The notes under the pieces: generated by a model
Told to the model about the DNA's origin: nothing
Seen by the model: the letters and a program-made list of their open reading frames with translations, nothing else
The model's database searches: none
Position numbers and translations under genes: made by a program
Shown: piece after piece, positions 40,401 through 63,872 of the stretch
Position numbering within the stretch: the first letter of the stretch is position 1
Layout: each line of letters begins with the position of its first letter
From: Trypanosoma brucei
Taxonomy: Eukaryota
Length of the DNA stretch: 64,000 nucleotides
Assembly (NCBI GenBank): GCA_000002445.1
Contig: CP000069.1
Span: 1,056,001 to 1,120,000 of the forward strand
Direction of reading: 5' to 3'

Positions 40401-43400
40401 GTGCTGTCATCGTATTTTGTCGAAACGCCATCGGCAGTCTCGACAAAACGGAAGAAGGAATGGTCTCAAACCGAACCTCGCACTTCGCGTCAGGGGAGTA
40501 AATGAAGTTTTTTACGGTTGCAACACGTCCACAGCGACCAATAAGCATCACCACCATCTCCTTCTCATGTGTAATGGAGCTCCCCTTTCCGTCACCGTTA
40601 TTGTTGTTTGCACTGATCTTTGCCGTTGTCCCCACCAAACTCTCTTCCCTTGTAGACCTAATACTCCCCATGCTCGCCCAATTATTGTTATTATTATCCT
40701 CTTGCTCTTGGCTCTCTTCCGTTTCACCACTTTTCTCCCACATCAGCATCGTCGCCATTGGGCCGTGAGGAAACACTTTCGACAGTGACGGTCCGAATAT
40801 GGTTTCACCTGCGTTACCCTTCCCATGATCCCCAACTCGCATCGGTCCTCCAACAAGGCACCTTTCCGTGATGTTGAACACAACGTATTCAAGCTGACAG
40901 AAGAAAAACACGAGCGGCGTGTTTGCCACCGGAACAGCGGCATTAATTCCTGAAAGAAACTTTTCTGGTAGCGATCGAAACTGTTTGTGACACCTCAATT
41001 TGAATAAACCACCACTACACCTCTGGCGGTAGCTATCCCACTCCAACCACTCCTCACCACAAAAAAAATATGCAGTTCGTGGGTTGACTGGGGAATTGAA
41101 GGCACAATCAAATCCACCCATAAAAGGAAAACTGTTCAGCCCCAACGTCTTGGACATGGGTTGTAAGGGAATATTCATGGAACGATTCTCCACGTTGAAA
41201 CAACACACGTGGTCTTTGATAAAAAACAGAGCATATTCGGTCAAATTTCCATCCTTTGTGCAAAGACAAATGGAATGCCATGTTTCACCGATGAGTGATG
41301 GCGGAACAACCTCAGGTTCCTGTGCTAACGCCCGTGCAGTAATCCCTTTTTCCATTTGTGCTGACAAGGGAAGCACCAACCGACCTCCGTTGGGTTTAGA
41401 ACGTCCCCCAGACTTCCTTTGCGATTCCGCCTCTTTCCTCATAAAGGACCACATACCCAACAAATCCTCATGAAATGGATCTTGTGTTATGATAGGGGCA
41501 TCTTTCTTGCGGTTCGCCGGCCTGGACACACGCTTAGTCAAACGTTTTTTTTCCACACGATCTACGGGAAGAGACGAAGACAAGGTGAGCATAGTTGTAG
41601 ACTCTGAGAGTAACCCCATAACTTGATTCCACTCAATATCACCGCTGCGTTCCCGGACATGTTCACGAGTCGCCGTCCCACTGCCCATCTGTAGACGTGC
41701 TGGATAGGGTGGAAGATTCACCAAATCATGTAGAAGCCGAGCAACCCATTCCACTGCGTTAGGACCAAGTACCTCGCTCAGGTAAAAGAGAACAAGGGAG
41801 CGAGTACTTTCAGTGAGACAAAGCTGTCGCAGCGTTCGCAGAAGTTTCCATTGACTTTGCGAAATATGGCACTCACCCGTGCGGTATGCAAAGAAAAGTA
41901 ACGCAGGTGGAAACCGAATAGCTTCCGAGAAAACTCTCGAGCCTTCAAGCCCCCCACCGTCGGTTGACAGGCAAATATCGCTCATGTAGTTGAAAGCTTC
42001 ATGGAGCACTTGACAGTTCTCCACTATGCCAATAACTTTCTTCGGAAGGTACCGCGAGGCGTGCAGTGAAATCTTCTCACCGTTGCTCAAAGCAAAGACA
42101 TTGGAATCAACAAAAATACACGCGTCACTGGATACATAGAGGTTAAAAACACTGCGGGGCACGTAAAAGAATCCACGATTCCCCACATTCTCCCCGAAGT
42201 TGCTTTGGCAGATAACATAGATGGTGTTGTGTATGTTTGTCTGCCCAACGACCTTAAGGGTCGTGTGAAATGAACGACCCATGGGCGATTCATTTGGTAT
42301 CACACCGTTCGGCAGTGCGAGCCACTCTACGCAAAAGCGCATGACGATAAGTATTGATCGCCGCATTTTACGAAACGCCCACAAAACAGCCCGTGTGTTG
42401 TCAAACAAGTTCGAGTGAGGGCCATCGACAATAAACAACCCTTGACGACGTCGCGAAAATGCAGCTCGAACCAAAGTCTCCATGTCAGCTACCTTACACC
42501 ACTTTTCCCATAGATAATAAAAGTCTCGTGTGGGTCTTTCTTTTCGACGGTTAAACGGTGCCGATTCCACAGGAAGGCAACCGACCATCAGCGCCACTTC
42601 ACACGCATGCCGCAACTCCATTCCCAAAGAAGTGGGAGGTATCTTAGCTAAGAAACGACCAACCGCATAGATCATATATGGATCAATAGCCACACCCTCG
42701 ATATCCGTCATCGCGCTCGCAACAGTAAGTGCACAACAGGTGTCTTCCCCAGCCGCATCGTCAATGTAGGCAGAAGCGAAGTTGATAATAGAAAAATCGT
42801 CATTTGATAACTGGGTCAACGGAATATCCAGCGAGGATAAAAGACTTATGCCGGTCATACTGTTCGTAACCTGCACACCGCCATAGCTATACAACCCAAA
42901 TCGTACAAGATGCTGCACGCACAGTTGAGAGCAAGGTTTGAACCTTTGGTGTTTTATCATTACTCTTGACAAGTGAAGAAGCGCCGACGGTCGCAGATAA
43001 CAGTCCACCGTTACGTCATCATGGAGTTGAGATAAGAATCTATACGCACCATTGGACAAACATAGAGTGTGATTTCCACATACGCTACACGCATCCGCAT
43101 CGTCATGGTTCTTCCTATGCATCTCCTCAGCGTCACTGCTGTCAGCTGACGAGCTGTCGAAACACCGTGTGGCTCCCGATGAGGCAGACGATAACGGGTT
43201 TACCACTTTCGTACTGCCCTCAGCGTTCAATTTTTCTGAATTTACGCGCTTTCTCTCCAGTCTAGCGACATTGTCTACCAGACAGCGCTGCAACGTTGTA
43301 TTCCGAGGACAAGTGCCCTTAACACCGTGGAGGTGCTCGCTCAACACACTCTCAATCATGATCACGATATCATCGCTCAGTTTATTCTTGCATTCATAAG

Positions 43401-44145
43401 AGCATATGAATAACACACCATTGTTCGTATCACAGCATACGAGCAAGGTCCGAAACAAAACTCCCAGCGCAACCTCGCAGTAACTCTCTCCACGATTCAT
43501 GAGTGCCTTCGAAAGCGCCAGGAGAATCTGTCCTTCAACCCTTTGGTCAGGGGAATAGATGACAGCCCTGTTGCAAACCAAACAACGGGAAGCCACTAAC
43601 TTCATGTTCGCATTGGAAAAGCACTGCCGTTGTATAGACAGGTACTTGGGTGTGTCCTTGTCCAATAGGATTTCCGTCAAGCAATTGTTTTTTAATGCGA
43701 GGGCGAAGAGCTTACGTCCACTGCTCACACTCAATGGAACGTCACGTAGGTCAATCTTTTGCAATGTTTCGTGAAAACCAAGGTACTGCAACATTTGAGC
43801 GATATCTTCCGCAGTCAACTTACATCCTCTCATGGACAAACTCGCAACGGAAAGGCGCTGTAGTGTTGTGAGAATAGGGATGATACCGCGTTCACCCAAG
43901 TAGCCGTTATCAAAGTTGAAAACTGTCGACCCGGCTCGTAATTGCTTTACAAACGCGTTGTTTACATTTATTCCAATGCGCGCACACTCCGAACGGTAAA
44001 ACCTCTCAGCTTCACTGACTGAATGGATCCGATTCGAAGTGGTTGAGCTTGAAGGCGAAGGTGGAGCTAAGGGATCCACTGTCTCCTCACTGGGGGACGC
44101 GGCCAAACACTTAGTGGCCCCTTTCAAGTTTTCTTCCCCTTGCAT
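34477..44145 (-). CDS. Giant (3222-aa) multidomain protein: N-terminal RNI-like LRR, long central region with six copies of a conserved repeat module, Gly/Asp-rich C-terminus
   Basis: Single uninterrupted 9.67-kb ORF co-oriented with its neighbours. Leu-rich RNI-like segment at aa ~90-170 (LTTLQRLSVASLSMRGCKLTAEDIAQMLQYLGFHETLQKIDLRDVPL). Repeat module at aa ~1369-2385. No catalytic motif recognised. Confidence 0.8.
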   Translation of the reverse strand: MQGEENLKGATKCLAASPSEETVDPLAPPSPSSSTTSNRIHSVSEAERFYRSECARIGINVNNAFVKQLRAGSTVFNFDNGYLGERGIIPILTTLQRLSVASLSMRGCKLTAEDIAQMLQYLGFHETLQKIDLRDVPLSVSSGRKLFALALKNNCLTEILLDKDTPKYLSIQRQCFSNANMKLVASRCLVCNRAVIYSPDQRVEGQILLALSKALMNRGESYCEVALGVLFRTLLVCCDTNNGVLFICSYECKNKLSDDIVIMIESVLSEHLHGVKGTCPRNTTLQRCLVDNVARLERKRVNSEKLNAEGSTKVVNPLSSASSGATRCFDSSSADSSDAEEMHRKNHDDADACSVCGNHTLCLSNGAYRFLSQLHDDVTVDCYLRPSALLHLSRVMIKHQRFKPCSQLCVQHLVRFGLYSYGGVQVTNSMTGISLLSSLDIPLTQLSNDDFSIINFASAYIDDAAGEDTCCALTVASAMTDIEGVAIDPYMIYAVGRFLAKIPPTSLGMELRHACEVALMVGCLPVESAPFNRRKERPTRDFYYLWEKWCKVADMETLVRAAFSRRRQGLFIVDGPHSNLFDNTRAVLWAFRKMRRSILIVMRFCVEWLALPNGVIPNESPMGRSFHTTLKVVGQTNIHNTIYVICQSNFGENVGNRGFFYVPRSVFNLYVSSDACIFVDSNVFALSNGEKISLHASRYLPKKVIGIVENCQVLHEAFNYMSDICLSTDGGGLEGSRVFSEAIRFPPALLFFAYRTGECHISQSQWKLLRTLRQLCLTESTRSLVLFYLSEVLGPNAVEWVARLLHDLVNLPPYPARLQMGSGTATREHVRERSGDIEWNQVMGLLSESTTMLTLSSSLPVDRVEKKRLTKRVSRPANRKKDAPIITQDPFHEDLLGMWSFMRKEAESQRKSGGRSKPNGGRLVLPLSAQMEKGITARALAQEPEVVPPSLIGETWHSICLCTKDGNLTEYALFFIKDHVCCFNVENRSMNIPLQPMSKTLGLNSFPFMGGFDCAFNSPVNPRTAYFFCGEEWLEWDSYRQRCSGGLFKLRCHKQFRSLPEKFLSGINAAVPVANTPLVFFFCQLEYVVFNITERCLVGGPMRVGDHGKGNAGETIFGPSLSKVFPHGPMATMLMWEKSGETEESQEQEDNNNNNWASMGSIRSTREESLVGTTAKISANNNNGDGKGSSITHEKEMVVMLIGRCGRVATVKNFIYSPDAKCEVRFETIPSSVLSRLPMAFRQNTMTALGSICRTVLETECSVHDVILCDAHRSVHRECTVTSTLTQSAECAENLLSVVLPHNFTTVAPLLCESAVFVQTEESLLGEPSQTIEVRYDPMNPCAFGALVIVLNLSCIEPRVLQVAPVEVLLESSDDGIAYVRHAHFFITSSITPVCWGVSHVGCVWRVRFVSKLPVGTGVVRLLLYEVMHVVGTIPVDPTVALPPLESTLVTIDAPCLLSPARDILNCLTPGAVFTTSTSAGWFERHCILPLLPNGDFCLLFCGPHFVELDCSNGVVVGHRAVPIAAHPAFDTLPAPFLRGVNAAFYPNVRTPNIVAFISGSHVILWDIEKGAFASGGGGVQSAATMFKDLPWKMEEVENIVQIWSQPEEVFVIKSPHVLRWNIVTSELVEGPMRLSNSTYFRHPAFEGKKILCAASFPKYPTRFYTFCEDLVAALDVETQGITNLTEAKPVSQSEVFFPVTWYLRWGIRRHDCVINLDFKNYQKLLVGVTMQSSEPCDDNWVVECSDDGVLWQTVGRHHQITSRCRTIWGSERVGHHSRRFWRFSLECEEVDSRHEYPVLYFHMLLLTVSSVSSRVLPVRVACSGTLNGPMSSLFVDDKVTVAFENPVDESGATKVVRQHLIVDYGEREPSDVMEFSCICVGKPRPVMWIISCSSNGEQWEVCGTWHSHDHYFRAAWHPRGPRRFWSVELEAREQSTIYENLTFFEYTGPSVYLEDSLYLSCLLDPFVLCEVGSSGDTVANVVVPAEVGSSIVLDSKQDATQVVGVCMICHENKSPYTAFVVECSSDAVEWRGVGVTFNLRGNLAQAAWDVSDCCQYWRLRVTQRVGTSPLRICSIRFDTPKPTLYHHVDSKGDIAAGSSGKDLNLRGNCTEVVAVEAELPPLSSFVVEKRSVDGSSWQAVATLRNDDSADSRKVRQGWKPRGMSSHWRLRPVLAEDNLEETCFSSKSGPFISWKKECDVQAEWYSFIGKAFVRYDFSKAPDVKMAVEKFDEVRLPIFLSDNNAKTVVLRSRGMETEASVSWFFDSDTSPHFKQVFVNGRVETNPDAEAELEKLAALEVTSASSPRAPKKTGKKISKASTAQQEEIVKAIEMEEEVLVIVVETSNNGVDYVPVAERPFSPKGNSLSFFVDTPTSYWRVRFKGIPKASFLELFEVFWSLEKGARTKLSSLLRCPLSDSMYETWKNAAYSHEDEFCQQCRAGYDQARSVVSGLREPEDIEHHGRIAQYFMRFKSEYIAFQSKVFRNASKAKNLPDNKYISTERRSGNDFMYLLHAVAERYSCGVDKLNMLIANPMLVSRDFSIEKESVSWFYPKIVEGGTLAESFYGFHNARAFVIILWSMSLHVQRNTDLLVTKKINALNEHVASVMVLVEIKEINWLAIEHFPRLPLLYHVGFSGQPVLIAFTLNTLVFTPRYRLTFPGCSPLPLNHQMQLFPGVNFIRRTSLATCPCPIFDKLLLLYTLQFLENTKTEIILSAPTMDSPNATVRFTLPGNDINFGLRGLVIGYMVFEIELCMKATNVDPSEMALPVTEHKRINFVSYDTQFDSGEGTEPIIELTLAGSIGYPDEQILISGMSPSARYDIGDVFPDAFISDLSINFNAVLGHQPQSFLQPTVNLSGTLVVPACGSFVCRLQRVALNRNFESLSMEVSEMPLASLVTLSDKLVGSLQKGVDVSWMEGIPMYFSLELQLEYVERRLTGRGTFTLDGIEGDVLVTLSTQGFGATGNFNTVRIGAVCLQGKDERHQVLVNVASLANGHLSVRLDGYSYLFAPRPYPTRVEISQRGVVCISTGVFYDVCIEEDSIFPSKKYANVLLSKDLFSKCLEEELREIPLITALLAKGVEFSFVVDDVFAPQCMLERQLVFITVRGVLMGCYFDVTVPVTQPDNTVEEAKKISKELLPRVIEQCDMPLWALYHMFVGCVERCGSAASGGEGGDADDNNSDGTNLSVEGSASRPQRGDTSRRQCDGVFLSRWIQQERGVFEEGL
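36993..40041 (-). repeat. Six intragenic protein-level repeats of a module marked by [LV]VE-x-S-x-[DN]G-x-x-W ... ~32 aa ... [FYHV]W[RS][VLF][RSE][LFV]
   Basis: Six copies by manual residue counting, at aa 1371, 1743, 1891, 2021, 2124 and 2341. They are: ESSDDGIAYV...VWRVRFVS, VVECSDDGVLWQTVG...FWRFSLEC, IISCSSNGEQWEVCG...FWSVELEA, VVECSSDAVEWRGVG...YWRLRVTQ, VVEKRSVDGSSWQAVA...HWRLRPV and VVETSNNGVDYVPVA...YWRVRFKG. Spacing is 110-370 aa. Confidence 0.6.
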
Positions 44146-49607: not shown

Positions 49608-51764
49608 TTAAGACACGCGGGTCCGGACAGTGCCGCCACAACTTCGCGTCCGGCGAGAGTTGCTGACACGACCAGGTGCGTTCGCGGAGATTCTTTCAAA
49701 CCCGTTGAGTCTCGAGTTGCCCATTTGAGTGGGTTTGTTGGATCTTGCCGTTTGCGCAGGTGTGGGAACGAACGTTCGCCGCCCCGAGGCTGCTTTCTTG
49801 AGATTTATCGCAGGAGGTTTGCATGCGGGTGCTGCACGCGGCGTTGCAACAGGCCTGACGGGACGAAGAAAGGATGGACGTTCCCTCGCAGATGTTGCAG
49901 TAGCGAAAGTCCTTACCGATTGCGTCACTGACGACTCCACTCGCTTGTTGGCGCCATTCGTATTGTGGCTAGTTACAGTATTGACGGCGGTATTGCTAAG
50001 CTGATGTCCCCGTTGCCTCGGTTTATTTGGTGAAACATTGTTTATAACACTAGCGATTCGCGAAGCTGAATGGGGTGCCTGCTTTTGTGAAGGGGGTAAA
50101 TCCTTGGGGAACGTTGGGGACGAAAAGCGCGGAACGACCTGCCTTGTCCGCGGAGACGAACACTTCGCTAATGGCGGTGTCGCTTCAATAAACGACGGTA
50201 CAGCGGCTGGACCACCATTTCCCGCAGAGCCGCGCACCGCTTTCAGCGTTGCCTTTTCACCTGCGCTTGTAGACGCAGCGGGGTAGCGGCTCGAAAGTAA
50301 CGGTTGCGAACCCGACGATGGTGACCTTACCCCATTAGATGATTTCCACCGTCGCGCAAGACCAAAAGAAGACCGCAAAAGCATAGAATAGAGTGCGTCA
50401 CGGTGAATTTTGCTAGCAACGTCCTCGTTTCGGCGATTCTCAGCATCACGCTGTGAAGCAGTGTCAATCAACTCCGCTAGCCTTGTCAAAACGCAAAGTT
50501 TGTTCTCTTGCATCTCTGGTGACTGCCATCCTCTTCCGGGAGTTGGGGAAATTTTAGTAAGTGCCTCACTTGCCGTAACAGAGTTCCCAAAATCTGGAAA
50601 GTACATGGGCCTCTCCGAGTCCTCGAGGTCCTGGTCGTTCGCGCGCCGAGCTGAAGACACGCTTACACTCAATCCCTCCACGCTCTTTCCACTACTGCTG
50701 CTTCTGAGACCGCTCCCACTGGCGGAAACCACCTTTTGCTTCCGACTGTTATGAATAATCCGCTGCTCTCTCCGTAGACTTTGCTGATGCTTGGAAACCA
50801 AATCAACTAAGTGGGTGGGCGCATCTGTACTCTCCACATGGGGAGACGGCTCCTCCTCAGCCGCCAACGGAGAACTGCAAACTGAAGAGTTATAAATTTG
50901 GGAATTAACAACCAACGCACGACTTCTGCACCACACGCCTGTCGCCAGACCTAACCTAATGCGTTCAATAGTATCGTTTATCCGAGACTCCAGTACATCT
51001 TCCCGCAAAACAGTACCATCGGCCTCACACAATACATTTAACTTTGAGAAGGTTGAATGAAGCAACCATTCCAAGTCACTGACCACTTCTTCAGGTTGAC
51101 GTTGCTCACCGCTGTGTGGCGCCAGTAACCAATCCCCAATAACCCACCGAGACCTATGGTTAGTTTCCGCCGCACCTGTTCGAACGTTTAGTTGCCTAAG
51201 AATTGAACTAAAACTCAAGTTACAATGAGGTGGCAACTGCATACATACAGATCCGTACTCCTCTACGCAGCTGAGAATATCCTCAAAGTCAGCCTCCTCA
51301 ATGAGTCGCCAGCCGGAACGTATGACATCTCCTAAAGATAAACCGGTGAAAGCTGAAAGAGACACGACAAAGCGCTCTCCACTGGATGGCAACTGACGCA
51401 CGTACGCGTCGACAGGAAGAGCTATTGACAGCGGTAAATCGCGTCGATGTGAGGCTGACACCAATGCTTCCAGCCTCTCCTGTTGTGCAAGCAGAAACGC
51501 ATCGTTAGTATTTGTGTCTTCCTCTGTTCGTGCACCTCGGTCCGTGGATGACGGCGCAATCTTTCTTGGTTCTTTCTGTGCCAGTGGAAGGCAGCGCAGC
51601 TCGTACATGCATTTAGTGTATTTATCTTTCGCACAGTAACGTGGTCCGTTTGCACTCTCCGCCGCGTCACTAATGCAGTTGCAGATGGTGAACATGGGGA
51701 AAAGCTCCGCAGTGTTTACCGACGGTGAGAGTAGCGAAAACGATGCTACTTCGGGCTCCTGCAT
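49608..51764 (-). CDS. Hypothetical protein, Ser/Arg/Pro-rich low-complexity C-terminal half
   Basis: 718-aa ORF co-oriented with the cluster. The N-terminal half is globular-looking. The C-terminal half is S/R/P/A-rich (SSSGKSVEGLSVSVSSARR..., RSPSSGSQPLLSSRYPAASTSAGEK...PRTRQVVPRFSSPTFPKDLPPSQKQAP). No motif recognised. Confidence 0.5.
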   Translation of the reverse strand: MQEPEVASFSLLSPSVNTAELFPMFTICNCISDAAESANGPRYCAKDKYTKCMYELRCLPLAQKEPRKIAPSSTDRGARTEEDTNTNDAFLLAQQERLEALVSASHRRDLPLSIALPVDAYVRQLPSSGERFVVSLSAFTGLSLGDVIRSGWRLIEEADFEDILSCVEEYGSVCMQLPPHCNLSFSSILRQLNVRTGAAETNHRSRWVIGDWLLAPHSGEQRQPEEVVSDLEWLLHSTFSKLNVLCEADGTVLREDVLESRINDTIERIRLGLATGVWCRSRALVVNSQIYNSSVCSSPLAAEEEPSPHVESTDAPTHLVDLVSKHQQSLRREQRIIHNSRKQKVVSASGSGLRSSSSGKSVEGLSVSVSSARRANDQDLEDSERPMYFPDFGNSVTASEALTKISPTPGRGWQSPEMQENKLCVLTRLAELIDTASQRDAENRRNEDVASKIHRDALYSMLLRSSFGLARRWKSSNGVRSPSSGSQPLLSSRYPAASTSAGEKATLKAVRGSAGNGGPAAVPSFIEATPPLAKCSSPRTRQVVPRFSSPTFPKDLPPSQKQAPHSASRIASVINNVSPNKPRQRGHQLSNTAVNTVTSHNTNGANKRVESSVTQSVRTFATATSARERPSFLRPVRPVATPRAAPACKPPAINLKKAASGRRTFVPTPAQTARSNKPTQMGNSRLNGFERISANAPGRVSNSRRTRSCGGTVRTRVS

Positions 51765-52868: not shown

Positions 52869-54881
52869 TCACAAATGTGGAGCAACATCCCATGAAGGAA
52901 TCGACAAGTCTTCGTTAGCACCGATATCTCTTAAGGCGACAAGTTTAACAGACGAACTTGTCTCATCGACGACTACTTTACAGTTTGCTTCATTGAGTGA
53001 TACACGGCGCACCGCACCAAGCAGTTGGGGAAGATAATACAAGACCGAGCCGTTTTCGCAGTTTGAACCCTTTACCCCAACCGCAAAAACCGAGACGTAT
53101 TCGTATAGCGCGTAAAACAAGTGAAGCGAGAACATCTCTTTTTCGTCTTTTGTAAAGAAGGTAGTTAGGTTATCATACACCATATACACTTTCTTATTTA
53201 TGTTGCCTTGTGGATCCGCGTTAACCAATGGAAAGACACCAAGCTGCTGCAAAGCTGATTGCAAAGGTAAAACCCCATCGTTTCCCGACACACGTGGTTC
53301 GGAGAAACCTTCGTAGGAAGATACTGAATCTTGTTGCTCATCTTCACGCGAATTGTCCTGCTGGGCGCGTAGTCGTCCGTACGTGACGTAGACCATAAGG
53401 AACAACCGCGTTGCCATATACGTCAAATCAAACAATGTGCGTTTCTCCCCAGGGGCAGAGTTGACACCAATAAGATCACGTGCCCGGTCAACAGCAGCGC
53501 GGTGACGCCCGTATTCTATGCTAAAGAAAAGCGACGAGCGTTGACGGCATTCCTCGCTACAGAAGAGTGCTATGCGCTTACCCGGAAGAGGTGAACACTC
53601 CGCGGACACGGGCGTCAGACTAGAGGCAGGTTTGAGGCACACGCAACATCTATCAGACGGCTCTGACCAAGGGGACTCCATGGCGAGAATTATGCTGGCC
53701 TCAGCATAAACAATTTCCGATGCTCGGAAATAGCGACGGGCGACAAGTTGCTTCCTATACTGTCCATCAATGTAGAGTCCCAAACTGTCGACTGGCAGAG
53801 TTCCTTGGAGGGAAAGCATGAACGAATTCAGTTCCTCTACTGCGTGCAGCTCTTGCGAGTTCGGAAGCATCCGCAACGCGCACTTGACGTTGTCACATGC
53901 TTCCTTAAACTTTCCCATTCCACTTAAAGCACGTGCAGCACAGAGATACCCCTTTACCCAAAGTGGTTCAAGGGCTATAATCCGCTGAGCATCCGCCATC
54001 GCCTCTTCGTAGCGTCCAAGAGACACCTTGGCGCGGGAACGTAGAATCAATGAGCTCACCGTGACACTAGACTCATTCTCAAAGGTCTCTAAAAGGTGCA
54101 GTGCTTCTTCACCCCTTCCGCCGACGATATGATCCCGTATCTCCACTAACCGCGGAGATTGTACCTCTAAAATGTATAGAGACTCGTAATACTGACTGAC
54201 ACAGCGAAGCACTTCACAATTATTAGGACCATCTTGACAGCATCCAGGTTGGCTGGCAAAGTTTCCAAAAACCCGCAACAGTGGACCTGATCTGCTACTA
54301 TAACTTCCAGATTCCTCATACGCCTCTATAGGCTCAGTCGATAGACATATCCGTGGGAACGTCAGAGCATAGTCCAACTCGGCGTGATCATTGCGAAAAG
54401 CGACGAGTGTCATTTTACCGGAGTGCCGGACCACTGTCCCTCGTGACCTGCCATTACAAACAACGCGGTGTGACTCGCTCCAGTATTCCCGCAACAAATG
54501 GCAGACATCGTACTCATCCACAATCCACACAGAGGACCCTGCAGGAAGGGATTCCACTGGAAGTCGGGGAAGTTTCGGCCTCTTTCTGCGGCTAAACGTG
54601 AAGGCTGATTCGGGAATATAAAGTTGCGTTTTATCATCCCACTCCTCCTCACGCCCCTCATCATTATCCGCATGCTTGCCATCCAATTTTTCCCCTGTGC
54701 CGTTCATAATCTCCTCAATTGAAAAATTTTCCTTCACGGTACCCCAAACAGATTCGTCAAATGAGGTTTCAGCAGCCGCAGTCAATTTTTCATCACCAAC
54801 GTTAAGTAGTGAAAAGGGCTGCAAATCGGCCTCTTCCTCATCAATCGCTTCTTCCAAGTCAGGACACCCAGTGTGGGACAT
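52869..54881 (-). CDS. TPR-repeat protein with MYND-like Cys cluster
   Basis: Start placed at Met MSHTGCPDLEE (54879-54881), because the 16 codons upstream (MCVCVLCLCV) translate a CA-rich repeat. TPR-like helical pairs (LGRYEEAMADAQRIIALEPLWVKGYLCAARALSGMGKFKEACDNVKCALRMLP). Cys/His cluster CCVCLKPASSLTPVSAECSPLPGKRIALFCSEECRQRS. Acidic N-terminus. Confidence 0.6.
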   Translation of the reverse strand: MSHTGCPDLEEAIDEEEADLQPFSLLNVGDEKLTAAAETSFDESVWGTVKENFSIEEIMNGTGEKLDGKHADNDEGREEEWDDKTQLYIPESAFTFSRRKRPKLPRLPVESLPAGSSVWIVDEYDVCHLLREYWSESHRVVCNGRSRGTVVRHSGKMTLVAFRNDHAELDYALTFPRICLSTEPIEAYEESGSYSSRSGPLLRVFGNFASQPGCCQDGPNNCEVLRCVSQYYESLYILEVQSPRLVEIRDHIVGGRGEEALHLLETFENESSVTVSSLILRSRAKVSLGRYEEAMADAQRIIALEPLWVKGYLCAARALSGMGKFKEACDNVKCALRMLPNSQELHAVEELNSFMLSLQGTLPVDSLGLYIDGQYRKQLVARRYFRASEIVYAEASIILAMESPWSEPSDRCCVCLKPASSLTPVSAECSPLPGKRIALFCSEECRQRSSLFFSIEYGRHRAAVDRARDLIGVNSAPGEKRTLFDLTYMATRLFLMVYVTYGRLRAQQDNSREDEQQDSVSSYEGFSEPRVSGNDGVLPLQSALQQLGVFPLVNADPQGNINKKVYMVYDNLTTFFTKDEKEMFSLHLFYALYEYVSVFAVGVKGSNCENGSVLYYLPQLLGAVRRVSLNEANCKVVVDETSSSVKLVALRDIGANEDLSIPSWDVAPHL

Positions 54882-54900
54882 CACCAATGGTGGAGTAAAT

Positions 54901-54929
54901 ACACACAAACACAACACACACACACACAA
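54901..54929. repeat. Imperfect (CA)n repeat at 5' end of TPR gene
   Basis: Direct read: acacacaaacacaacacacacacacacaag. Confidence 0.85.
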
Positions 54930-55467: not shown

Positions 55468-56436
55468 CTAACCACCAGCCACAATGCTGAAATGATCTTT
55501 CGGCGGCTGCACAGTCCTAAAGTGTCTCCCCGGTTTGACTGGTACAACAGGGTCCGACTCAACCTTTCCCTCGCTGGCGGCAATCAAAACAATCGCCGCA
55601 GCGACAACAGAAGTTTCCACCACTTTTCGATGACGCATGTACGTTTCCATCAATTCCTCCCGCTTTTCCACCAGAGATTCATAGAACCATGTACGATTGC
55701 GATGGTGCTTCCCCCACGCAAATGCACGCTGGTACATGAAGTAGATACTTACTAGTGCTAAAACCAAATACAAGCGCAAAAACGTCGGACTTCGAGACGG
55801 TAGGTCACCGCTATCACTCAAACGGTCGACTCCACGTTGAAACACTGTCTTTGCGTTGTCTTCTTTCTCGAGGTCCAACGACCGCCTTCGTAACTCCTCC
55901 GTCATCTCTGATTTCGCAGAGAAAGAAGCGTAGCGCGGCTGTTGTGCGCGCACTAATGGCCTGTCGAGCTCTACCCACTTGCCATCATCACGGTTTTGGT
56001 AAATATACTTCCCAGTAGGTGTCACACGCTCAGTAGAGGGATCAAGAGCGCTTAACTTGGCACATTCTTCTTCTGACAAGGTGGCACTCACATGTTCTTC
56101 CGATTGTTGTAACTGTTCAGTGGAGATGGGACTCGGCCAACGCGTCTCAGCATTAGGTTTTTGGCCAACTAACTTCGAGCGCAGCTGCTCATACGCTCCC
56201 TCTTTTAGTAAGAAATTATAAGCCTTATTTATTCGCTCCATTTTTTCACTGTCACCAGTTCCTGAGTCTGGATGGTGAAGTCGAGCCAACTCTCGATAAC
56301 GCATCTTCACCTCCGCCTTCGTAGCTGTGCGGGCAAGACCCAAAACCGCAAAAGGGTCTTTTGAAAGCAAAAAAAACGACGAGCGCATACTATCAAATAC
56401 GAAGGCACTCACCGCGAGCACAACACAAGCGGTCAC
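55468..56436 (-). CDS. Membrane-anchored J-domain (DnaJ-like) protein
   Basis: J domain with the HPD tripeptide (DPFAVLGLARTATKAEVKMRYRELARLHHPDSGTGDSEKMERINKAYNFLL). It is preceded by a hydrophobic N-terminal segment and followed by two C-terminal hydrophobic helices (FLRLYLVLALVSIYFMY, VVAAAIVLIAASEG). Confidence 0.75.
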   Translation of the reverse strand: MTACVVLAVSAFVFDSMRSSFFLLSKDPFAVLGLARTATKAEVKMRYRELARLHHPDSGTGDSEKMERINKAYNFLLKEGAYEQLRSKLVGQKPNAETRWPSPISTEQLQQSEEHVSATLSEEECAKLSALDPSTERVTPTGKYIYQNRDDGKWVELDRPLVRAQQPRYASFSAKSEMTEELRRRSLDLEKEDNAKTVFQRGVDRLSDSGDLPSRSPTFLRLYLVLALVSIYFMYQRAFAWGKHHRNRTWFYESLVEKREELMETYMRHRKVVETSVVAAAIVLIAASEGKVESDPVVPVKPGRHFRTVQPPKDHFSIVAGG

Positions 56437-56892
56437 AAAGCAACCCTAAGAGTGTACTTTCAATACAATCAAAAAGTAATATTGTGCTTTCAGCTGGAGT
56501 ACAGCGGAAACACACTATAGAAAGAAAACAATAATAATAAGAGTAATTTCTTTTTTAAAGAATTGTTTCACGGGGGAAACCAATAATAGTAAAATATAAA
56601 CAAATTTAAAAATCTTATAAAATTACTTATCAAAACCCCTTCAAACACTTTTAAAAAAGTCAATATCATTATATATTTGCCTAAAATTATAATAGCGAAA
56701 AAAAACGCTCAAAGTACAATAATAAAAAACCTTAAACCACAAATATTATGCCGTCAATTCGACCGACCGGCACAATCATTGAAGAAAAAACGACCGAAGA
56801 TAACACACACACAAAAAAAAATTACACCTCCATAAAATAGGCGTAAACATTTTTTTAAAAATGACTCAGTAATGCATCCACCAACATTTCAC

Positions 56893-58866
56893 TTACTCCT
56901 TCTTTTCACCAGATGCCTGCTGCTGTTGTTGCTCACCCTGACCTTCTGTGCTGCTGCTACCAGAGCTACCGCTGTTCGCTGCTGCCGCCTGTTGGTACTC
57001 CGTGCGACCACATTCCATCACTGCCTTTTGCAGTTTGTCAGTAGAAGCCGACAGTTCATCCTTCGTCACGTTTGGATTCTCCATCACCTTGCGAAGTTCA
57101 GCCAAAAGGGTACGCACATTCTCCTTCTCAGCGTCCGTCACGTACTTCCATTCCGTCAGTTGTCGCTCAGCAGTGTTAGCCTGAGTCTCAGCATTGTTAC
57201 GCACTTCCACAAGCTCCCGCTTCACACGGTCAGCTTCAGCGTGCATCTCAGAGTCGCGGATCATGTTCTCGATCTGCTCCTTCGTCAACCCACCATGAGC
57301 AGTAATGGTGATGTTCTGTGTTTTCCCAGTTGCCTTGTCCTTCGCAGTTACGTGACAAATACCATTAGCATCAATGTCAAATGTCACCTCAATTTGTGGT
57401 ACACCGCGTGGTGCAGGAGGAATTCCAACGAGGTCAAACTGACCCATCATTTGGTTGTCAGATGCCATTTCTCGTTCCCCTTGGAACACTTTGATTCCGA
57501 CCTGTGTTTGGTTGTCCGCAGCAGTTGAGAAGGTTTGACTCTTCTTCGTCGGGATTGTTGTGTTCTTGGGAATCATACGTGTGAAGACACCACCAAGTGT
57601 TTCGATTCCAAGTGATAGTGGTGTAACGTCAAGCAATACAAGACCCTTCACATCACCACGGAGAACACCACCAAGTGTTGCAGCACCCAGTGCAACGGCC
57701 TCGTCAGGGTTCACACCACGGAACGGTTCGCGACCGAAGAACTGCTTCACAGCCTCCACAACCTTTGGCATACGCGTCATACCACCAACAAGCACAACCT
57801 CAGAGATTTCCTTCAGGTCAACAGCAGCGTCCTTGATGCATTGCTTGCACGGTCCAAGTGAACGTTGTACGAGCTTATCAGCAAGGGACTCAAACTTGCT
57901 GCGGCTCACCATCATCTGCACGTGCTGCGCTCCGTCCTGGTTAGCTGTGATAAACGGAAGGTTTACCTCCGTCTCCATCGTCGTCGAAAGTTCACACTTC
58001 GCCTTTTCTGCAGCCTCACGAATACGCTGCAGTGCCATCCGCTCCTTGCTCAAGTCAATTCCAGATGTCTTGCGGAATTCCTCCAGAATGTGATCAGAGA
58101 GGCAGAGATCAAAGTCTTCTCCACCAAGGTGAGTGTCGCCATTCGTTGCCTTTACCTCAAAAACACCTCCGGCAATTTCAAGTACGGAGATATCAAATGT
58201 TCCACCACCAAGATCATACACGGCAATTAAGCTGTCCTTCGTTTTGTCCAAGCCATATGCCAGTGCAGCAGCAGTCGGTTCATTCACAACACGGATCACA
58301 TTCAGTCCAGCAATCGTACCGGCATCCTTCGTTGCCTGACGTTGCGCGTCATTGAAGTACGCGGGGCACGTCACCACAGCGTTAGATACTTTGCGTCCCA
58401 GGAAGTTTTCTGCCGTTTCCTTCATCTTCTCAAGTACGAATGCACCAACTTGTGAAGGTGAGTATTGCTTCCCATTCCCATCTTGCACCCACGCATCACC
58501 ATTATTGCTCCGAATAATCTTGTAGGGCACATTCTTGATGTCGTGTTGGATGTGCTCATCATCGAAGCGACGACCAATCAGCCGTTTCACCGCGAAGAAT
58601 GTCGACTGTGGGTTCGTAATCGCCTGACGTTTCGCTGCAAGGCCAACAAGTTTTTCCTGTCCTTTGAACGCAACCACAGACGGTGTCGTCCTGAAACCCT
58701 CTGTATTCTCAAGTACGCGTGGCCGGTCACCTTCCATTACTGCAACACAACTGTATGTCGTACCCAAATCAATACCAATCACGTCACCAGTTACCTTCGA
58801 TGACTGCCACCGCGCAAACGGGGCAGACGCCAGGCACATGGGTGCGCATACACGACGGGCCAACAT
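56893..58866 (-). CDS. mtHSP70: Mitochondrial HSP70 (mtHSP70 / mortalin-type DnaK), copy 1
   Basis: 657-aa ORF with DnaK signatures [24 protein letters not shown] and [13 protein letters not shown]. Arg-rich N-terminal mitochondrial presequence [20 protein letters not shown]. Gln/Gly/Ser-rich C-terminal tail without cytosolic EEVD. Confidence 0.95.
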
Positions 58867-59451
58867 TTTATTACTTCACAAACTACTTCTTACCTTAGAA
58901 ATACTTTACCTCCGAGAAAATATCTAAGAAGTATGCATGTCATATGATATAGAATAAAAAGGAATATCTCATATATTGAAATCAATGAATCTCTTCTATA
59001 ATTGAAGACGTTACAACTGCGTTTCAGATATGAGTGTATATGTAATAATAAAATTCGTAGTGATGTAATAATAATGTTGTATGGATCGGCTCCCTTCACG
59101 CTCAAAAATCACCAGGTACAGTTGAACTTTGTCGCAGCACCCAACAACAATCAACAAGGATTCGTTTATAACCCTCCAGTTTTCGTTCCTCAATTGTGCA
59201 GATAAACATATAGTGAAACGATAAAACTGAAGCACCCCACACTTCACTAGAAGAAATGAGGACAATAACTTAATAATACCCCATTATCCAAATTCGTTGC
59301 ACCATTTATCAAGTAGATCACAAGCCGGTCAAATTAAAGAAACAAAAAAAGCAATAAAACATAATAGTAATGATAATAATACTCCTTGATAGTAAAAAAC
59401 GTTAAAAAATCAGTTAGAAAAAAATCAGTAATGCATCCACCAACATTTCAC

Positions 59452-61425
59452 TTACTCCTTCTTTTCACCAGATGCCTGCTGCTGTTGTTGCTCACCCTGA
59501 CCTTCTGTGCTGCTGCTACCAGAGCTACCGCTGTTCGCTGCTGCCGCCTGTTGGTACTCCGTGCGACCACATTCCATCACTGCCTTTTGCAGTTTGTCAG
59601 TAGAAGCCGACAGTTCATCCTTCGTCACATTTGGATTCTCCATCACCTTGCGAAGTTCAGCCAAAAGGGTACGCACATTCTCCTTCTCAGCGTCCGTCAC
59701 GTACTTCCATTCCGTCAGTTGTCGCTCAGCAGTGTTAGCCTGAGTCTCAGCATTGTTACGCACTTCCACAAGCTCCCGCTTCACACGGTCAGCTTCAGCG
59801 TGCATCTCAGAGTCGCGGATCATGTTCTCGATCTGCTCCTTCGTCAACCCACCATGAGCAGTAATGGTGATGTTCTGTGTTTTCCCAGTTGCCTTGTCCT
59901 TCGCAGTTACGTGGCAAATACCATTAGCATCAATGTCAAATGTCACCTCAATTTGTGGTACACCGCGTGGTGCAGGAGGAATTCCAACGAGGTCAAACTG
60001 ACCCATCATTTGGTTGTCAGATGCCATTTCTCGTTCCCCTTGGAACACTTTGATTCCGACCTGTGTTTGGTTGTCCGCAGCAGTTGAGAAGGTTTGACTC
60101 TTCTTCGTCGGGATTGTTGTGTTCTTGGGAATCATACGTGTGAAGACACCACCAAGTGTTTCGATTCCAAGTGATAGTGGTGTAACGTCAAGCAATACAA
60201 GACCCTTCACATCACCACGGAGAACACCACCAAGTGTTGCAGCACCCAGTGCAACGGCCTCGTCAGGGTTCACACCACGGAACGGTTCGCGACCGAAGAA
60301 CTGCTTCACAGCCTCCACAACCTTTGGCATACGCGTCATACCACCAACAAGCACAACCTCAGAGATTTCCTTCAGGTCAACAGCAGCGTCCTTGATGCAT
60401 TGCTTGCACGGTCCAAGTGAACGTTGTACGAGCTTATCAGCAAGGGACTCAAACTTGCTGCGGCTCACCATCATCTGCACGTGCTGCGCTCCGTCCTGGT
60501 TAGCTGTGATAAACGGAAGGTTTACCTCCGTCTCCATCGTCGTCGAAAGTTCACACTTCGCCTTTTCTGCAGCCTCACGAATACGCTGCAGTGCCATCCG
60601 CTCCTTGCTCAAGTCAATTCCAGATGTCTTGCGGAATTCCTCCAGAATGTGATCAGAGAGGCAGAGATCAAAGTCTTCTCCACCAAGGTGAGTGTCGCCA
60701 TTCGTTGCCTTTACCTCAAAAACACCTCCGGCAATTTCAAGTACGGAGATATCAAATGTTCCACCACCAAGATCATACACGGCAATTAAGCTGTCCTTCG
60801 TTTTGTCCAAGCCATATGCCAGTGCAGCAGCAGTCGGTTCATTCACAACACGGATCACATTCAGTCCAGCAATCGTACCGGCATCCTTCGTTGCCTGACG
60901 TTGCGCGTCATTGAAGTACGCGGGGCACGTCACCACAGCGTTAGATACTTTGCGTCCCAGGAAGTTTTCTGCCGTTTCCTTCATCTTCTCAAGTACGAAT
61001 GCACCAACTTGTGAAGGTGAGTATTGCTTCCCATTCCCATCTTGCACCCACGCATCACCATTATTGCTCCGAATAATCTTGTAGGGCACATTCTTGATGT
61101 CGTGTTGGATGTGCTCATCATCGAAGCGACGACCAATCAGCCGTTTCACCGCGAAGAATGTCGACTGTGGGTTCGTAATCGCCTGACGTTTCGCTGCAAG
61201 GCCAACAAGTTTTTCCTGTCCTTTGAACGCAACCACAGACGGTGTCGTCCTGAAACCCTCTGTATTCTCAAGTACGCGTGGCCGGTCACCTTCCATTACT
61301 GCAACACAACTGTATGTCGTACCCAAATCAATACCAATCACGTCACCAGTTACCTTCGATGACTGCCACCGCGCAAACGGGGCAGACGCCAGGCACATGG
61401 GTGCGCATACACGGCGGGCCAACAT
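59452..61425 (-). CDS. mtHSP70: Mitochondrial HSP70, copy 2 (identical protein)
   Basis: Translation identical to copy 1 over all 657 aa. The nucleotide sequence differs at only 3 synonymous positions (for example 57070 g vs 59629 a, 57355 a vs 59914 g, 58853 a vs 61412 g). Confidence 0.95.
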
Positions 61426-62855
61426 TTTATTACTTCACAAACTACTTCTTACCTTAGAAATACTTTACCACTTACCAACTTGTCTATTAAACCGATAAGA
61501 AGAAGCATTGAGTGGGAGAATGTTTTTTTTTTTAAACAGCTTTAGAACTTTGTTCAATAGTTTTTGCTTATTGCTTTGGTTTTAGAGTCTTCGTATCTAT
61601 GTTATTTAACTGTGTACGTCGCTTGTTTTTAATATCGTACGTTGACGCTCTCTGTCGACAGGTTGACACGATAATAAAATATTATATTGTTGAAGTGGAA
61701 GGAAAGCTTCTTCGCAACATTTCATTTCTATCTTATGTTATTACAGTTACCAGTGTGCTTTGGCTGTTGAAAGAAATGCATTATCCTTTTTTTAAAAAAA
61801 GGGTGGTGTCTTTACAACATTCTCATCAGTTTTGCGAGGGAAGCGGCGACACACATGTCTTTTTCACAACGGCGGATGTCCCGTTGTTCCTTTTCCATAC
61901 CTTGGGCTGGATAAAGAATAATTTAAACAGATTTCATAATTTGCTGATAGGTCCCCCTTGTCATAAGGGTTGTGTGTTATCCAGGCAGCTATCGTGAGGT
62001 AACTGTAGCAATTAAGGCGGCGCGAGCGTGTATTGTAAACATAACGAATACCTCTTTCGCAATATGCCCGCGCATCCCTTAGAAAATTTGCGTGGTTTGC
62101 GAAGGCTGGAGCATCATTATACATTCTTCCTGGCGGCTTCCTTAAATTAATGTCCGTGATATCTCTTTGAGTGTCATTGTGCGACTCACTACAATTAGTA
62201 AGTGAGAGTAGCTGCAGTAAGTCATGAGGGCATCCTTTTTACCATTCCGGTACCTTCCCCTTGCATTGAAGTTTTAGGTTATCCTGTCATCCTGCACACA
62301 AACGAAACCCCCAAACCAAACGCCTTCGCCGTAGCCGTCGCATCTGCGTAGGAATATATTTACCCGCATTACTACGAAAACGATAAGAAGAAAATGGGAT
62401 ATGAACACGACACACAGGAAGAGAACCACTGATATTTCGTAGACGGTGTTACACGAATAACCAGTTGTATTCAGTGGCATAATTCGGAGACTTGCCACGA
62501 AGCACATGAAGAGGCCATTGACCAAATGTACAGAGTCTATTGGCATGTCGTAAACTTGCATGAGAATAAGAGAATGCTTTCTAATTAACGTGAAAATGTG
62601 AAAACGCTGGACTTACTGGACCCGCGCTGCACACTCGTGAAAAGTCACACAACTCTACTCGGCACGCGTATCTTGTTTTCTTAATTATTCTACGGCTCGC
62701 CAAGAATTCAGATAACGAGCGCAGTTTCTACCATTGATGCCGTCGTTTCGTGGAAAAGGCAGAAACAAGTCGATGCTCTCGTCGCAAAACAATACAAAAT
62801 AAACCCACAATCGCCTGCGACAGATTCACAAGAACGCACCACAGAGAACAAAACC

Positions 62856-63872
62856 TCAAATAGGAATGGCTAGTATGTGTGAAACACCGTATTTAGTCGA
62901 GGAGAGAGCAGCCCATAAATCACTCTGTTGCAACATAACGGCAGGCAGAGACCATGATTCGGTATCAGGGACCGTTACGGATGAGAGCTTCTCCGCTCCG
63001 CTTGAGGGTGGCCCAGACTCATTCGTAAGTAACGAATGCAAATCCCAGTACCTCGTGGGTTTGGGGTCCTCCTTCAAATCGAGACACGTCAGCTTCGCAG
63101 AGGTGTCTCCTGCCGCTATGTAGCCATTCCGCATCGCCACAGACCTGATAGGGGCCCGCTCTTTACCGGTTGAAAATGCTTCTTCCCTAACATTCCCCTC
63201 TAAGCACCTCAATACAAACACTCGACCACTAACAGTGCCGGTTGCCACCGCGCCAGTATCCGGGGAGGAGGTAATACTGATAATCTGGTCAGGAACGGCT
63301 AGAATCACCACGGGTTCGTGTCCACGTCTCACGTCATACAACATGGCTTTACCATCGTAAGCGGCAACAACAAGTGTGTTCTGAGTGAGTGCGGTACCAC
63401 CGACGACGCAGGGCTTTGGAATGTGGAGGTTGATTCGCGCGGTCGATGTCTCCAAGTCAATTATCTGTGCATCAGTGGGAGAGCAGGCCAGAAGAAGTGA
63501 AGGTTCATTCGGTACCTCCTTGAGTGAGAGCACAGCAGCTTTGTTCTGAAATGAATAGTGTTGCACCACATTCTTCGAGTGACGGGAGACAAGTACAATA
63601 TCGCCACTTGACGATCCAGTAGCAAAGCACGAATCATAAGAAACGAAACTCGAGGAAATGACGGCACCCTCACCAAAATTACCATGAGGAAAAGTTTCTA
63701 CATGCGTAACTGCTTGTCTTGCTCCGCATTGGGCGTGTTGTAAGTCTCCCATGTGAAATATGTGAGCCCCATTCATCATTGTGCTTGCAAGGCAGGCGTC
63801 CTCATTGCTTGCTTGCGTTAGGCACGATATACAGCCTTGCACCTCAAAGCAGGACGATCTCTCTAGCTTCAT
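62856..63872 (-). CDS. Hypothetical protein, probable WD40/beta-propeller fold
   Basis: 338-aa ORF co-oriented with the cluster. Periodic hydrophobic beta-strand-like segments with Gly/Asp turns (GDIVLVSRHSKNVV, LVVAAYDGKAMLYDVRRG, GTVSGRVFVLRC, GYIAAGDTSAKLTCLDL). No strict WD dipeptides, so the call is tentative. Confidence 0.4.
   Translation of the reverse strand: MKLERSSCFEVQGCISCLTQASNEDACLASTMMNGAHIFHMGDLQHAQCGARQAVTHVETFPHGNFGEGAVISSSFVSYDSCFATGSSSGDIVLVSRHSKNVVQHYSFQNKAAVLSLKEVPNEPSLLLACSPTDAQIIDLETSTARINLHIPKPCVVGGTALTQNTLVVAAYDGKAMLYDVRRGHEPVVILAVPDQIISITSSPDTGAVATGTVSGRVFVLRCLEGNVREEAFSTGKERAPIRSVAMRNGYIAAGDTSAKLTCLDLKEDPKPTRYWDLHSLLTNESGPPSSGAEKLSSVTVPDTESWSLPAVMLQQSDLWAALSSTKYGVSHILAIPI

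Follow-up and report, generated by a model that had tools for sequence, protein, structure and literature searches.

Near-Identical Mitochondrial HSP70 Genes in Trypanosoma brucei: Evidence for Gene Conversion between Copies with Distinct Flanks

Organization of the mtHSP70 Pair

The stretch of Trypanosoma brucei DNA analyzed here (the window; 64,000 nucleotides [nt], contig CP000069.1 of assembly GCA_000002445.1, positions 1,056,001 to 1,120,000) carries on its minus strand two adjacent genes for a mitochondrial HSP70 (mtHSP70), referred to below as copies A and B. Self-comparison of the window at an offset of 2559 nt identified 56866–58910 (unit A, minus strand) and 59425–61469 (unit B, minus strand) as direct copies of 2045 nt each, 2559 nt apart, with 99.85% (99.853%) identity by blastn. 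Exactly three mismatches separate the units, at 58855/61414 (A/G), 57355/59914 (A/G), and 57070/59629 (G/A), and all three are synonymous third positions, in codons 4 (CGT/CGC), 504 (TGT/TGC), and 599 (AAC/AAT). The identity spans 44 nt 5′ of the ATG, the coding sequence (CDS), and 27 nt 3′ of the stop codon, and then ends abruptly; outside these limits the sequences are unalignable. A preliminary description made from the sequence alone had correctly recognized two units with three synonymous differences and a sharp 5′ limit about 44 nt from the ATG, but had given their length as 2044 nt from position 56867, placed the 3′ limit at about 26 nt, and located one of the three differences 2 nt away, at 58853/61412.

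The units are separated by a unique spacer of 514 nt (58911–59424), in which the 3′ untranslated region (UTR) of B lies together with the processing signals of that copy and the 5′ signals of A; comparison of the spacer with both outer flanks by blastn, including gapped homology, gave only chance-level matches. A and B form the sole long repeat found in a whole-window repeat scan, and neither a third copy nor any other HSP70-like sequence was detected in the 64 kb by tblastn or blastn. Chance cannot account for a match this good over 2 kb.

The CDSs of copy A (56893–58866, minus strand, adjoining a DnaJ gene) and copy B (59452–61425, minus strand) encode identical proteins of 657 residues. The product is a full-length HSP70 (Pfam PF00012, E = 1.6e-266, profile positions 1–598 of 599, residues 29–624), 100% identical to the T. 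b. gambiense “heat shock 70 kDa protein, mitochondrial precursor” and 96%, 93%, and 94% identical to its homologues in T. congolense, T. vivax, and T. cruzi, respectively. The best matches are of the mitochondrial/DnaK lineage and comprise the T. b. gambiense and T. cruzi mitochondrial precursors, HSP71_TRYCR (Heat shock 70 kDa protein, mitochondrial), and proteins annotated “molecular chaperone DnaK”. The approximately 28 residues ahead of the HSP70 domain are rich in Arg and Ala, and the C terminus is ...ASGEKKE rather than EEVD. By architecture and closest relatives, the product is thus predicted to be a mitochondrial (DnaK-type) HSP70, not a cytosolic or endoplasmic reticulum HSP70, in line with the name mtHSP70 used in the preliminary description; the mitochondrial localization itself is taken from the literature (Týč et al., 2015; PMC4337576).

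A catalogue of T. brucei tandem arrays lists, as “Tb46”, a two-copy heat shock 70 kDa protein array of 1974-bp genes at 1112893–1117425 on chromosome 6 of strain TREU927 (Jackson, 2007, BMC Evol Biol 7:54, PMC1855330, supplementary catalogue). Each CDS in the window has 1974 bp, and from first to last CDS base (56893–61425) the pair covers 4533 bp, equal to the published span; the assignment to chromosome 6 is backed by 99.4% identity to the T. b. gambiense chromosome FN554969.1. With chromosome, copy number, CDS length, and span in common, the pair and Tb46 are the same array, and the window as a whole matches ~1,056,001–1,120,000 on chromosome 6 of T. b. brucei TREU927. The mtHsp70 of T. brucei is described as the product of three genes in one chromosomal region, Tb927.6.3740, Tb927.6.3750, and Tb927.6.3800, with 100% identical proteins and predicted 5′ and 3′ UTRs that differ somewhat, and the copy number among kinetoplastids as ranging from 2 to 6 (Týč, Klingbeil, and Lukeš, 2015, mBio 6:e02425-14, PMC4337576). 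From these data, including the ORF (open reading frame) and protein matches and the coincidence with the Tb46 coordinates, copy A probably corresponds to Tb927.6.3740 and copy B to Tb927.6.3750.

A Third Copy at a Separate Locus

The exact 657-residue protein was found by protein look-up in T. b. gambiense DAL972 (FN554969.1) and in an assembly of T. b. equiperdum. In sense orientation the gene order is [511 residues]-HSP70(C)-[AAA]-[IBR]-[208 residues]-[WD40]-HSP70(B)-HSP70(A)-[DnaJ]. Copy C is Tb927.6.3800; the four genes that separate it from B fit the numbering gap between 3750 and 3800 and are intact in every genome examined. In T. b. equiperdum the stop codon of C lies ~8.98 kb from the ATG of B, and extrapolation of this spacing predicts that copy C would lie at ~70.4–72.4 kb in window coordinates, ~6–8 kb past the right end. 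The preliminary description had anticipated a third copy, possibly outside the window, in agreement with this gene order and with the gene list of Týč et al. (2015).

Pair-Specific Limits of Homology

Comparison of the copies in pairs revealed that the extent of homology depends on the pair. A and B share sequence from −44 (relative to the ATG) to +27 (relative to the stop codon). B and C remain similar to approximately −156 on the 5′ side (96–100% identity), with the same 3′ limit of +27, such that ~112 nt of additional upstream flank of B (61470–61581, minus strand) are common to copy C of the related genomes and absent from A. A and C share the 5′ limit of −44, but their similarity continues to approximately +66 on the 3′ side (~84–90% identity), giving A an additional downstream flank (+28 to about +66; 56827–56865, minus strand) in common with C and not with B. 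The short limits, 5′ in copy A and 3′ in copy B, are thus the two that adjoin the internal 514-nt spacer; on its outer sides, the pair retains flanks similar to those of copy C.

Since the limits are pair specific, conversion is not confined to the coding block, as the preliminary description had held it to be; its reach is set by how much sequence the two copies compared still have in common. At the −44 and +27 edges, the duplicated segment probably abuts the spacer, either as first formed or after a later replacement of the spacer; these edges may go back to the initial duplication or rearrangement and not be set by the conversion machinery itself. Beyond them there would be no homology for strand exchange or invasion. 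In T. vivax and T. cruzi, some copy pairs likewise lose homology 5–50 nt from the CDS, and others share 567–711 nt of flank; in T. cruzi, copy C1 and the DnaJ-side copy have 567 nt of identical upstream flank in common.

An RNA-mediated (cDNA) origin of the block was considered, prompted by the start of homology near plausible trans-splice acceptor AGs. It was rejected on account of the pair-specific limits (−44 versus −156; +27 versus +66) and of the +27 limit, which is far too short for the end of a 3′ UTR.

Strain-Specific Substitutions Shared by Paralogues

The window and T. b. gambiense have orthologous sequences (97.5–99% identity) in the B–A spacer and on both outer sides of the pair, implying that the two-copy arrangement predates the split of these T. 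brucei lineages. The spacer was found elsewhere only as this T. b. gambiense orthologue (97.5%), with no other match in the window or in the fetched loci, and it is absent from the T. b. equiperdum assembly. A look-up of the T. congolense locus returned no record, so the age of the B/A duplication within the African trypanosomes is not narrowed further.

A table of CDS variants in window copies A and B and in the T. b. gambiense and T. b. equiperdum copies shows substitutions that group by genome and not by position. At CDS sites 381, 522, 840, and 1860, one state is present in both A and B of the window and another in all the T. b. gambiense and T. b. equiperdum copies. Site 9 has a T. b. gambiense-specific state common to its B and C, and site 1734 a T. 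b. equiperdum-specific state common to both its copies; five further variants are singletons. Strain-specific synonymous substitutions shared by paralogues of the same genome thus number six in T. brucei, and no site groups the copies by position. Substitutions that arose after the duplication must therefore have spread between paralogues, including those at loci ~9 kb apart, and the ongoing gene conversion proposed in the preliminary description is upheld to this extent. Synonymous divergence (dS) is 0.0066 between A and B, lower than the 0.013–0.015 between strains.

The mtHSP70 Family in Other Trypanosomatids

We compared the corresponding loci of T. vivax, T. cruzi Dm28c and TCC (haplotypes treated separately), and Leishmania mexicana. 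HSP70 copies occupy the same two syntenic loci, upstream of the AAA gene and between the WD40 and DnaJ genes, with the same neighbors in T. brucei, T. vivax, and T. cruzi. The number of copies at each is reversed: T. brucei has one copy at the AAA-upstream locus and two at the WD40–DnaJ locus, whereas T. vivax and T. cruzi have two and one. Within a genome the paralogues differ at 0–8 nt (none in T. vivax, 5–8 in T. cruzi Dm28c, and 2–3 in each TCC haplotype), compared with 383–420 of ~1970 nt between species. The corresponding within-genome dS is 0–0.013, whereas between species dS is saturated (2.0 for T. brucei/T. vivax and 2.7 for T. brucei/T. cruzi), with a nonsynonymous divergence (dN) of 0.04–0.05 between T. 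brucei and either T. vivax or T. cruzi. The variable sites in T. cruzi repeat the T. brucei pattern, 16 of them grouping by strain or haplotype and none by position. Saturated interspecific dS indicates that the synonymous sites are free to change, so selection cannot explain the identity within genomes. Such a pattern is the textbook mark of concerted evolution, and the mtHSP70 family displays it across trypanosomes.

Two of the loci have further features of interest. In T. vivax (SOPI01000326.1, 11963–12713 of fetched locus L004), a 711-nt stretch after the DnaJ-side copy repeats exactly what follows C1. This stretch consists of the whole C1–C2 spacer and the first ~95 nt of another HSP70 CDS (residues 1–45 by tblastn), cut off just before the DnaJ gene; it represents either what remains of a second copy at the DnaJ locus or a long inter-locus conversion tract. 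In L. mexicana (FR799582.1, 10001–19905 of fetched locus L010), the region between the WD40 and DnaJ genes contains copies of 666 and 636 residues with a 344-residue fragment between them. The two genes are not homogenized (158 nt differences, dS 0.17, dN 0.065) and have different C termini; concerted evolution of the mtHSP70 family is thus incomplete in Leishmania.

Anomalous Copies in Assemblies of Related Genomes

The T. b. equiperdum assembly (GCA_003543875.1, CM010677.1; 10001–11974 of fetched locus L011) has one mtHSP70 copy between the WD40 and DnaJ genes. This copy combines a B-type 5′ flank with an A-type 3′ flank and has one nonsynonymous difference (CDS 1745 A>G). With no 514-nt spacer, the locus is short by exactly one 2559-bp period and contains no Ns. 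True copy-number variation, by unequal exchange or single-strand annealing, and assembly collapse are equally good explanations. The genome paper for isolate IVM-t1, whose link to GCA_003543875.1 is unverified, describes the merging of only 7,508 PacBio reads with a MiSeq assembly.

The T. b. gambiense DAL972 assembly is scrambled at the locus, with N gaps, a duplicated junction, and the 3′ flanks of B and C interchanged around the gaps. At position A it contains a 658-residue paralogue with 91% amino acid identity (13068–15046 of fetched locus L003, FN554969.1), which we rejected as real divergence and regard as an artifact of sequence quality and assembly. Its ~70 differences lie in one patch (CDS 630–978), where their density per 50 nt climbs through 1, 2, 6, 11, 13, 15, 14, and 14 (i.e., to ~30%) before returning to zero; within the patch, indels break the frame of the raw DNA sequence. 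A second, partial T. b. gambiense copy after C (12517–13461 of fetched locus L002, a 223-residue fragment), which abuts an N gap, has different errors in the same region. The rising error density, the frameshifts, and the neighboring N gap point to low-quality read tails, not divergence; outside the patch, T. b. gambiense A and B differ at three sites. Paralogues differing at many sites in other isolates had been named in the preliminary description as an observation that would speak against homogenization, and this copy is an apparent instance only. The caution of that description regarding assemblies of such arrays was well founded, given the scrambled DAL972 locus and the single-copy T. b. 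equiperdum assembly.

Discussion

Our results make it very probable that copies A, B, and C are an old small family within a minus-strand polycistronic unit, the CDSs of which are homogenized by non-crossover gene conversion and the flanks of which are kept copy specific. In such a process, non-reciprocal homologous recombination would repeatedly homogenize the CDSs of A, B, and C, and the intergenic flanks, and with them the UTRs and RNA-processing signals, would stay particular to each copy; changes in copy number would stem from occasional unequal exchange. We infer conversion of the non-crossover type because the distinct flanks are preserved and because a crossover between C and A or B would delete the four intervening genes. 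Observed are the retention of distinct copy flanks that are orthologous between strains and the intact genes between C and B, with the three A/B differences being too few to delimit a tract. Under polycistronic transcription, the benefit is likely to be one of gene dosage for a single essential chaperone, perhaps together with copy-specific regulation through UTRs.

Several alternatives were weighed against this account. A very recent tandem duplication, too young to have diverged and without any gene conversion, would leave as few as 3 differences in 2045 nt, and the copy number at the WD40–DnaJ locus does vary (two in T. brucei versus one in T. vivax and T. cruzi). However, the two-copy arrangement with its unique 514-nt spacer is orthologous in T. 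b. gambiense and so arose before the strain split; at four sites A and B share substitutions that set them apart from the T. b. gambiense and T. b. equiperdum copies; a simple tandem event would have left the spacer homologous to one outer flank, which is not so; and copy C, at a locus common to T. vivax and T. cruzi, is equally similar. This explanation is largely refuted, and we give it very little credence. Maintenance of identity by purifying selection together with codon-usage constraint on an essential chaperone, with no other process, would accord with the high conservation of the protein between trypanosome species (dN 0.04–0.05) and with the synonymous nature of all the differences; it is refuted by the lack of constraint on synonymous sites, where interspecific dS is 2.0–2.7 compared with 0.0066 for A/B, and by the identity of the 44 nt and 27 nt of noncoding flank, leaving it a negligible probability.

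The possibility of an assembly artifact, either a false duplication or a blended consensus that exaggerates the likeness of A and B, gains some color from the related genomes, i.e., from the single T. b. equiperdum copy with its B-type 5′ and A-type 3′ flanks, from the low PacBio read number behind that assembly if it is that of IVM-t1, and from the N gaps and duplicated junction of DAL972. Yet both window copies have unique, non-homologous flanks and three real differences, the spacer was recovered independently in T. b. gambiense, two copies are catalogued in the finished TREU927 chromosome (Jackson, 2007; PMC1855330), and experimental work treats the family as three genes (Týč et al., 2015; PMC4337576). 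Blending could lower the apparent number of A/B differences but cannot create structure, and we consider an artifact very unlikely. Homogenization owed chiefly to unequal crossing-over, with copies repeatedly lost and re-duplicated, and not to non-crossover conversion has more in its favor, although it too is unlikely: the T. b. equiperdum single copy, if real, is the expected product of unequal exchange or single-strand annealing between B and A, the per-locus copy number has changed between species (1+2 versus 2+1), and the T. vivax DnaJ-side copy is followed by the truncated remains of another copy. Re-duplication would, however, give a spacer homologous to a flank, whereas the spacer is unique and conserved between T. 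b. brucei and T. b. gambiense, and a crossover between C and A or B would remove four genes, yet C is homogenized too. Crossover therefore explains the turnover in copy number better than it explains the identity of sequence.

There are also observations that weigh against gene conversion as presented here, or that limit its reach. The evidence for copy C comes from related genomes, and the window strain’s own C was not seen. With only three differences between A and B, no single conversion tract is statistically delimitable. Both the copy number and the exact differences between paralogues rest on assemblies, in which consensus building over 2-kb near-identical repeats can itself homogenize, and the 100% identity of the T. 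vivax copies could partly reflect long-read polishing. Finally, the T. b. equiperdum assembly is single copy at the WD40–DnaJ locus, compared with two copies in the window and in T. b. gambiense.

Both the gene array and the homogenizing process are already known from the literature. For T. brucei tandem arrays in general, concerted evolution through frequent conversion is the account already in print; the same study lists Tb46 but leaves it out of Table 1, where divergence and concerted evolution are analyzed (Jackson, 2007; PMC1855330). The work of Týč et al. (2015; PMC4337576) is functional, concerning maintenance of kinetoplast DNA and RNA interference (RNAi) against all three copies together, and offers no analysis of nucleotide identity, homology limits, or concerted evolution. 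The explicit test of concerted evolution for Tb46 is thus a small addition. Like the invariant T. brucei arrays (tubulin, histones, PFR, glycerol kinase, and cysteine peptidase; Jackson, 2007), the mtHSP70 genes have CDSs that are identical apart from rare silent changes and paralogues that are monophyletic per species despite interspecies synteny. In contrast, the intergenic repeats of most invariant arrays are identical as well, whereas the mtHSP70 A/B flanks are unalignable past −44 and +27. Disrupted flanks and physical separation have been tied to escape from concerted evolution (Jackson, 2007); mtHSP70 copy C is homogenized despite four intervening genes and distinct flanks. The family is therefore a mild counter-example to, or a slight qualification of, the generalization that structural heterogeneity stops concerted evolution in trypanosome arrays, and a clean small example of conversion that homogenizes CDSs between copies with unrelated flanks, even at non-adjacent loci.

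There are precedents among other T. brucei genes. Segmental gene conversion among hsp70 genes of this species was reportedly described in 1990 by Lee, Polvere, and Van der Ploeg, as cited in the 2007 array survey; the genes concerned are the cytosolic ones, not the mitochondrial DnaK-type genes. Such conversion is also reported among the PGK genes, and both cases involve conversion tracts between neighboring paralogues in a polycistronic unit.

A more speculative reading is that the family provides one protein in three regulatory contexts. Conversion, including inter-locus conversion over ~9 kb and four unrelated genes, would keep the CDS uniform, and selection would keep the UTRs distinct, placing the same chaperone under different post-transcriptional programmes of the life cycle; the sharp homology limits would then be maintained by selection and not simply be a legacy of a duplication junction. 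We regard this proposal as possible but rather doubtful. In one paper, Tb927.6.3750 is the only one of the genes used as a cluster marker in 3′-biased single-cell RNA sequencing of bloodstream forms, which hints that the divergent UTRs matter. If the proposal is true, the family would be a counter-example to the view that disrupted flanks or physical separation free duplicates from concerted evolution.

The practical consequences are modest, and no new question is opened. The three mtHSP70 genes are indistinguishable by coding-sequence reads, RNAi, or peptides, and the flanks alone tell them apart. Assemblies of the locus are unreliable, as illustrated by the 9%-divergent paralogue of DAL972, which is a read-quality artifact, and by the T. 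b. equiperdum assembly that has one copy fewer.

Neighboring Genes and Other Open Reading Frames

The minus strand carries all the large ORFs of the window, the arrangement expected of a polycistronic unit in a trypanosomatid. A 3222-residue ORF (34477–44145, minus strand) has no Pfam match at E ≤ 0.001, nor do ORFs of 718 residues (49608–51764) and 686 residues (52869–54929); these are large trypanosomatid proteins encoded in the same transcription unit as the mtHSP70 pair. Two genes served as synteny anchors. Directly upstream of the pair is a gene with WD40 repeats, identified by domain search (62856–63872, minus strand), which is also present in T. b. gambiense, T. b. equiperdum, T. vivax, T. 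cruzi, and L. mexicana. Directly downstream is a gene for a J-domain (DnaJ) protein (55468–56436, minus strand; PF00226, E = 9.8e-12), which is not the mtHsp40 (Tb927.9.12730) of Týč et al. (2015). This DnaJ neighbor is conserved at all the trypanosomatid loci fetched, and its adjacency to mtHSP70 is kept in T. brucei, T. vivax, T. cruzi, and L. mexicana.

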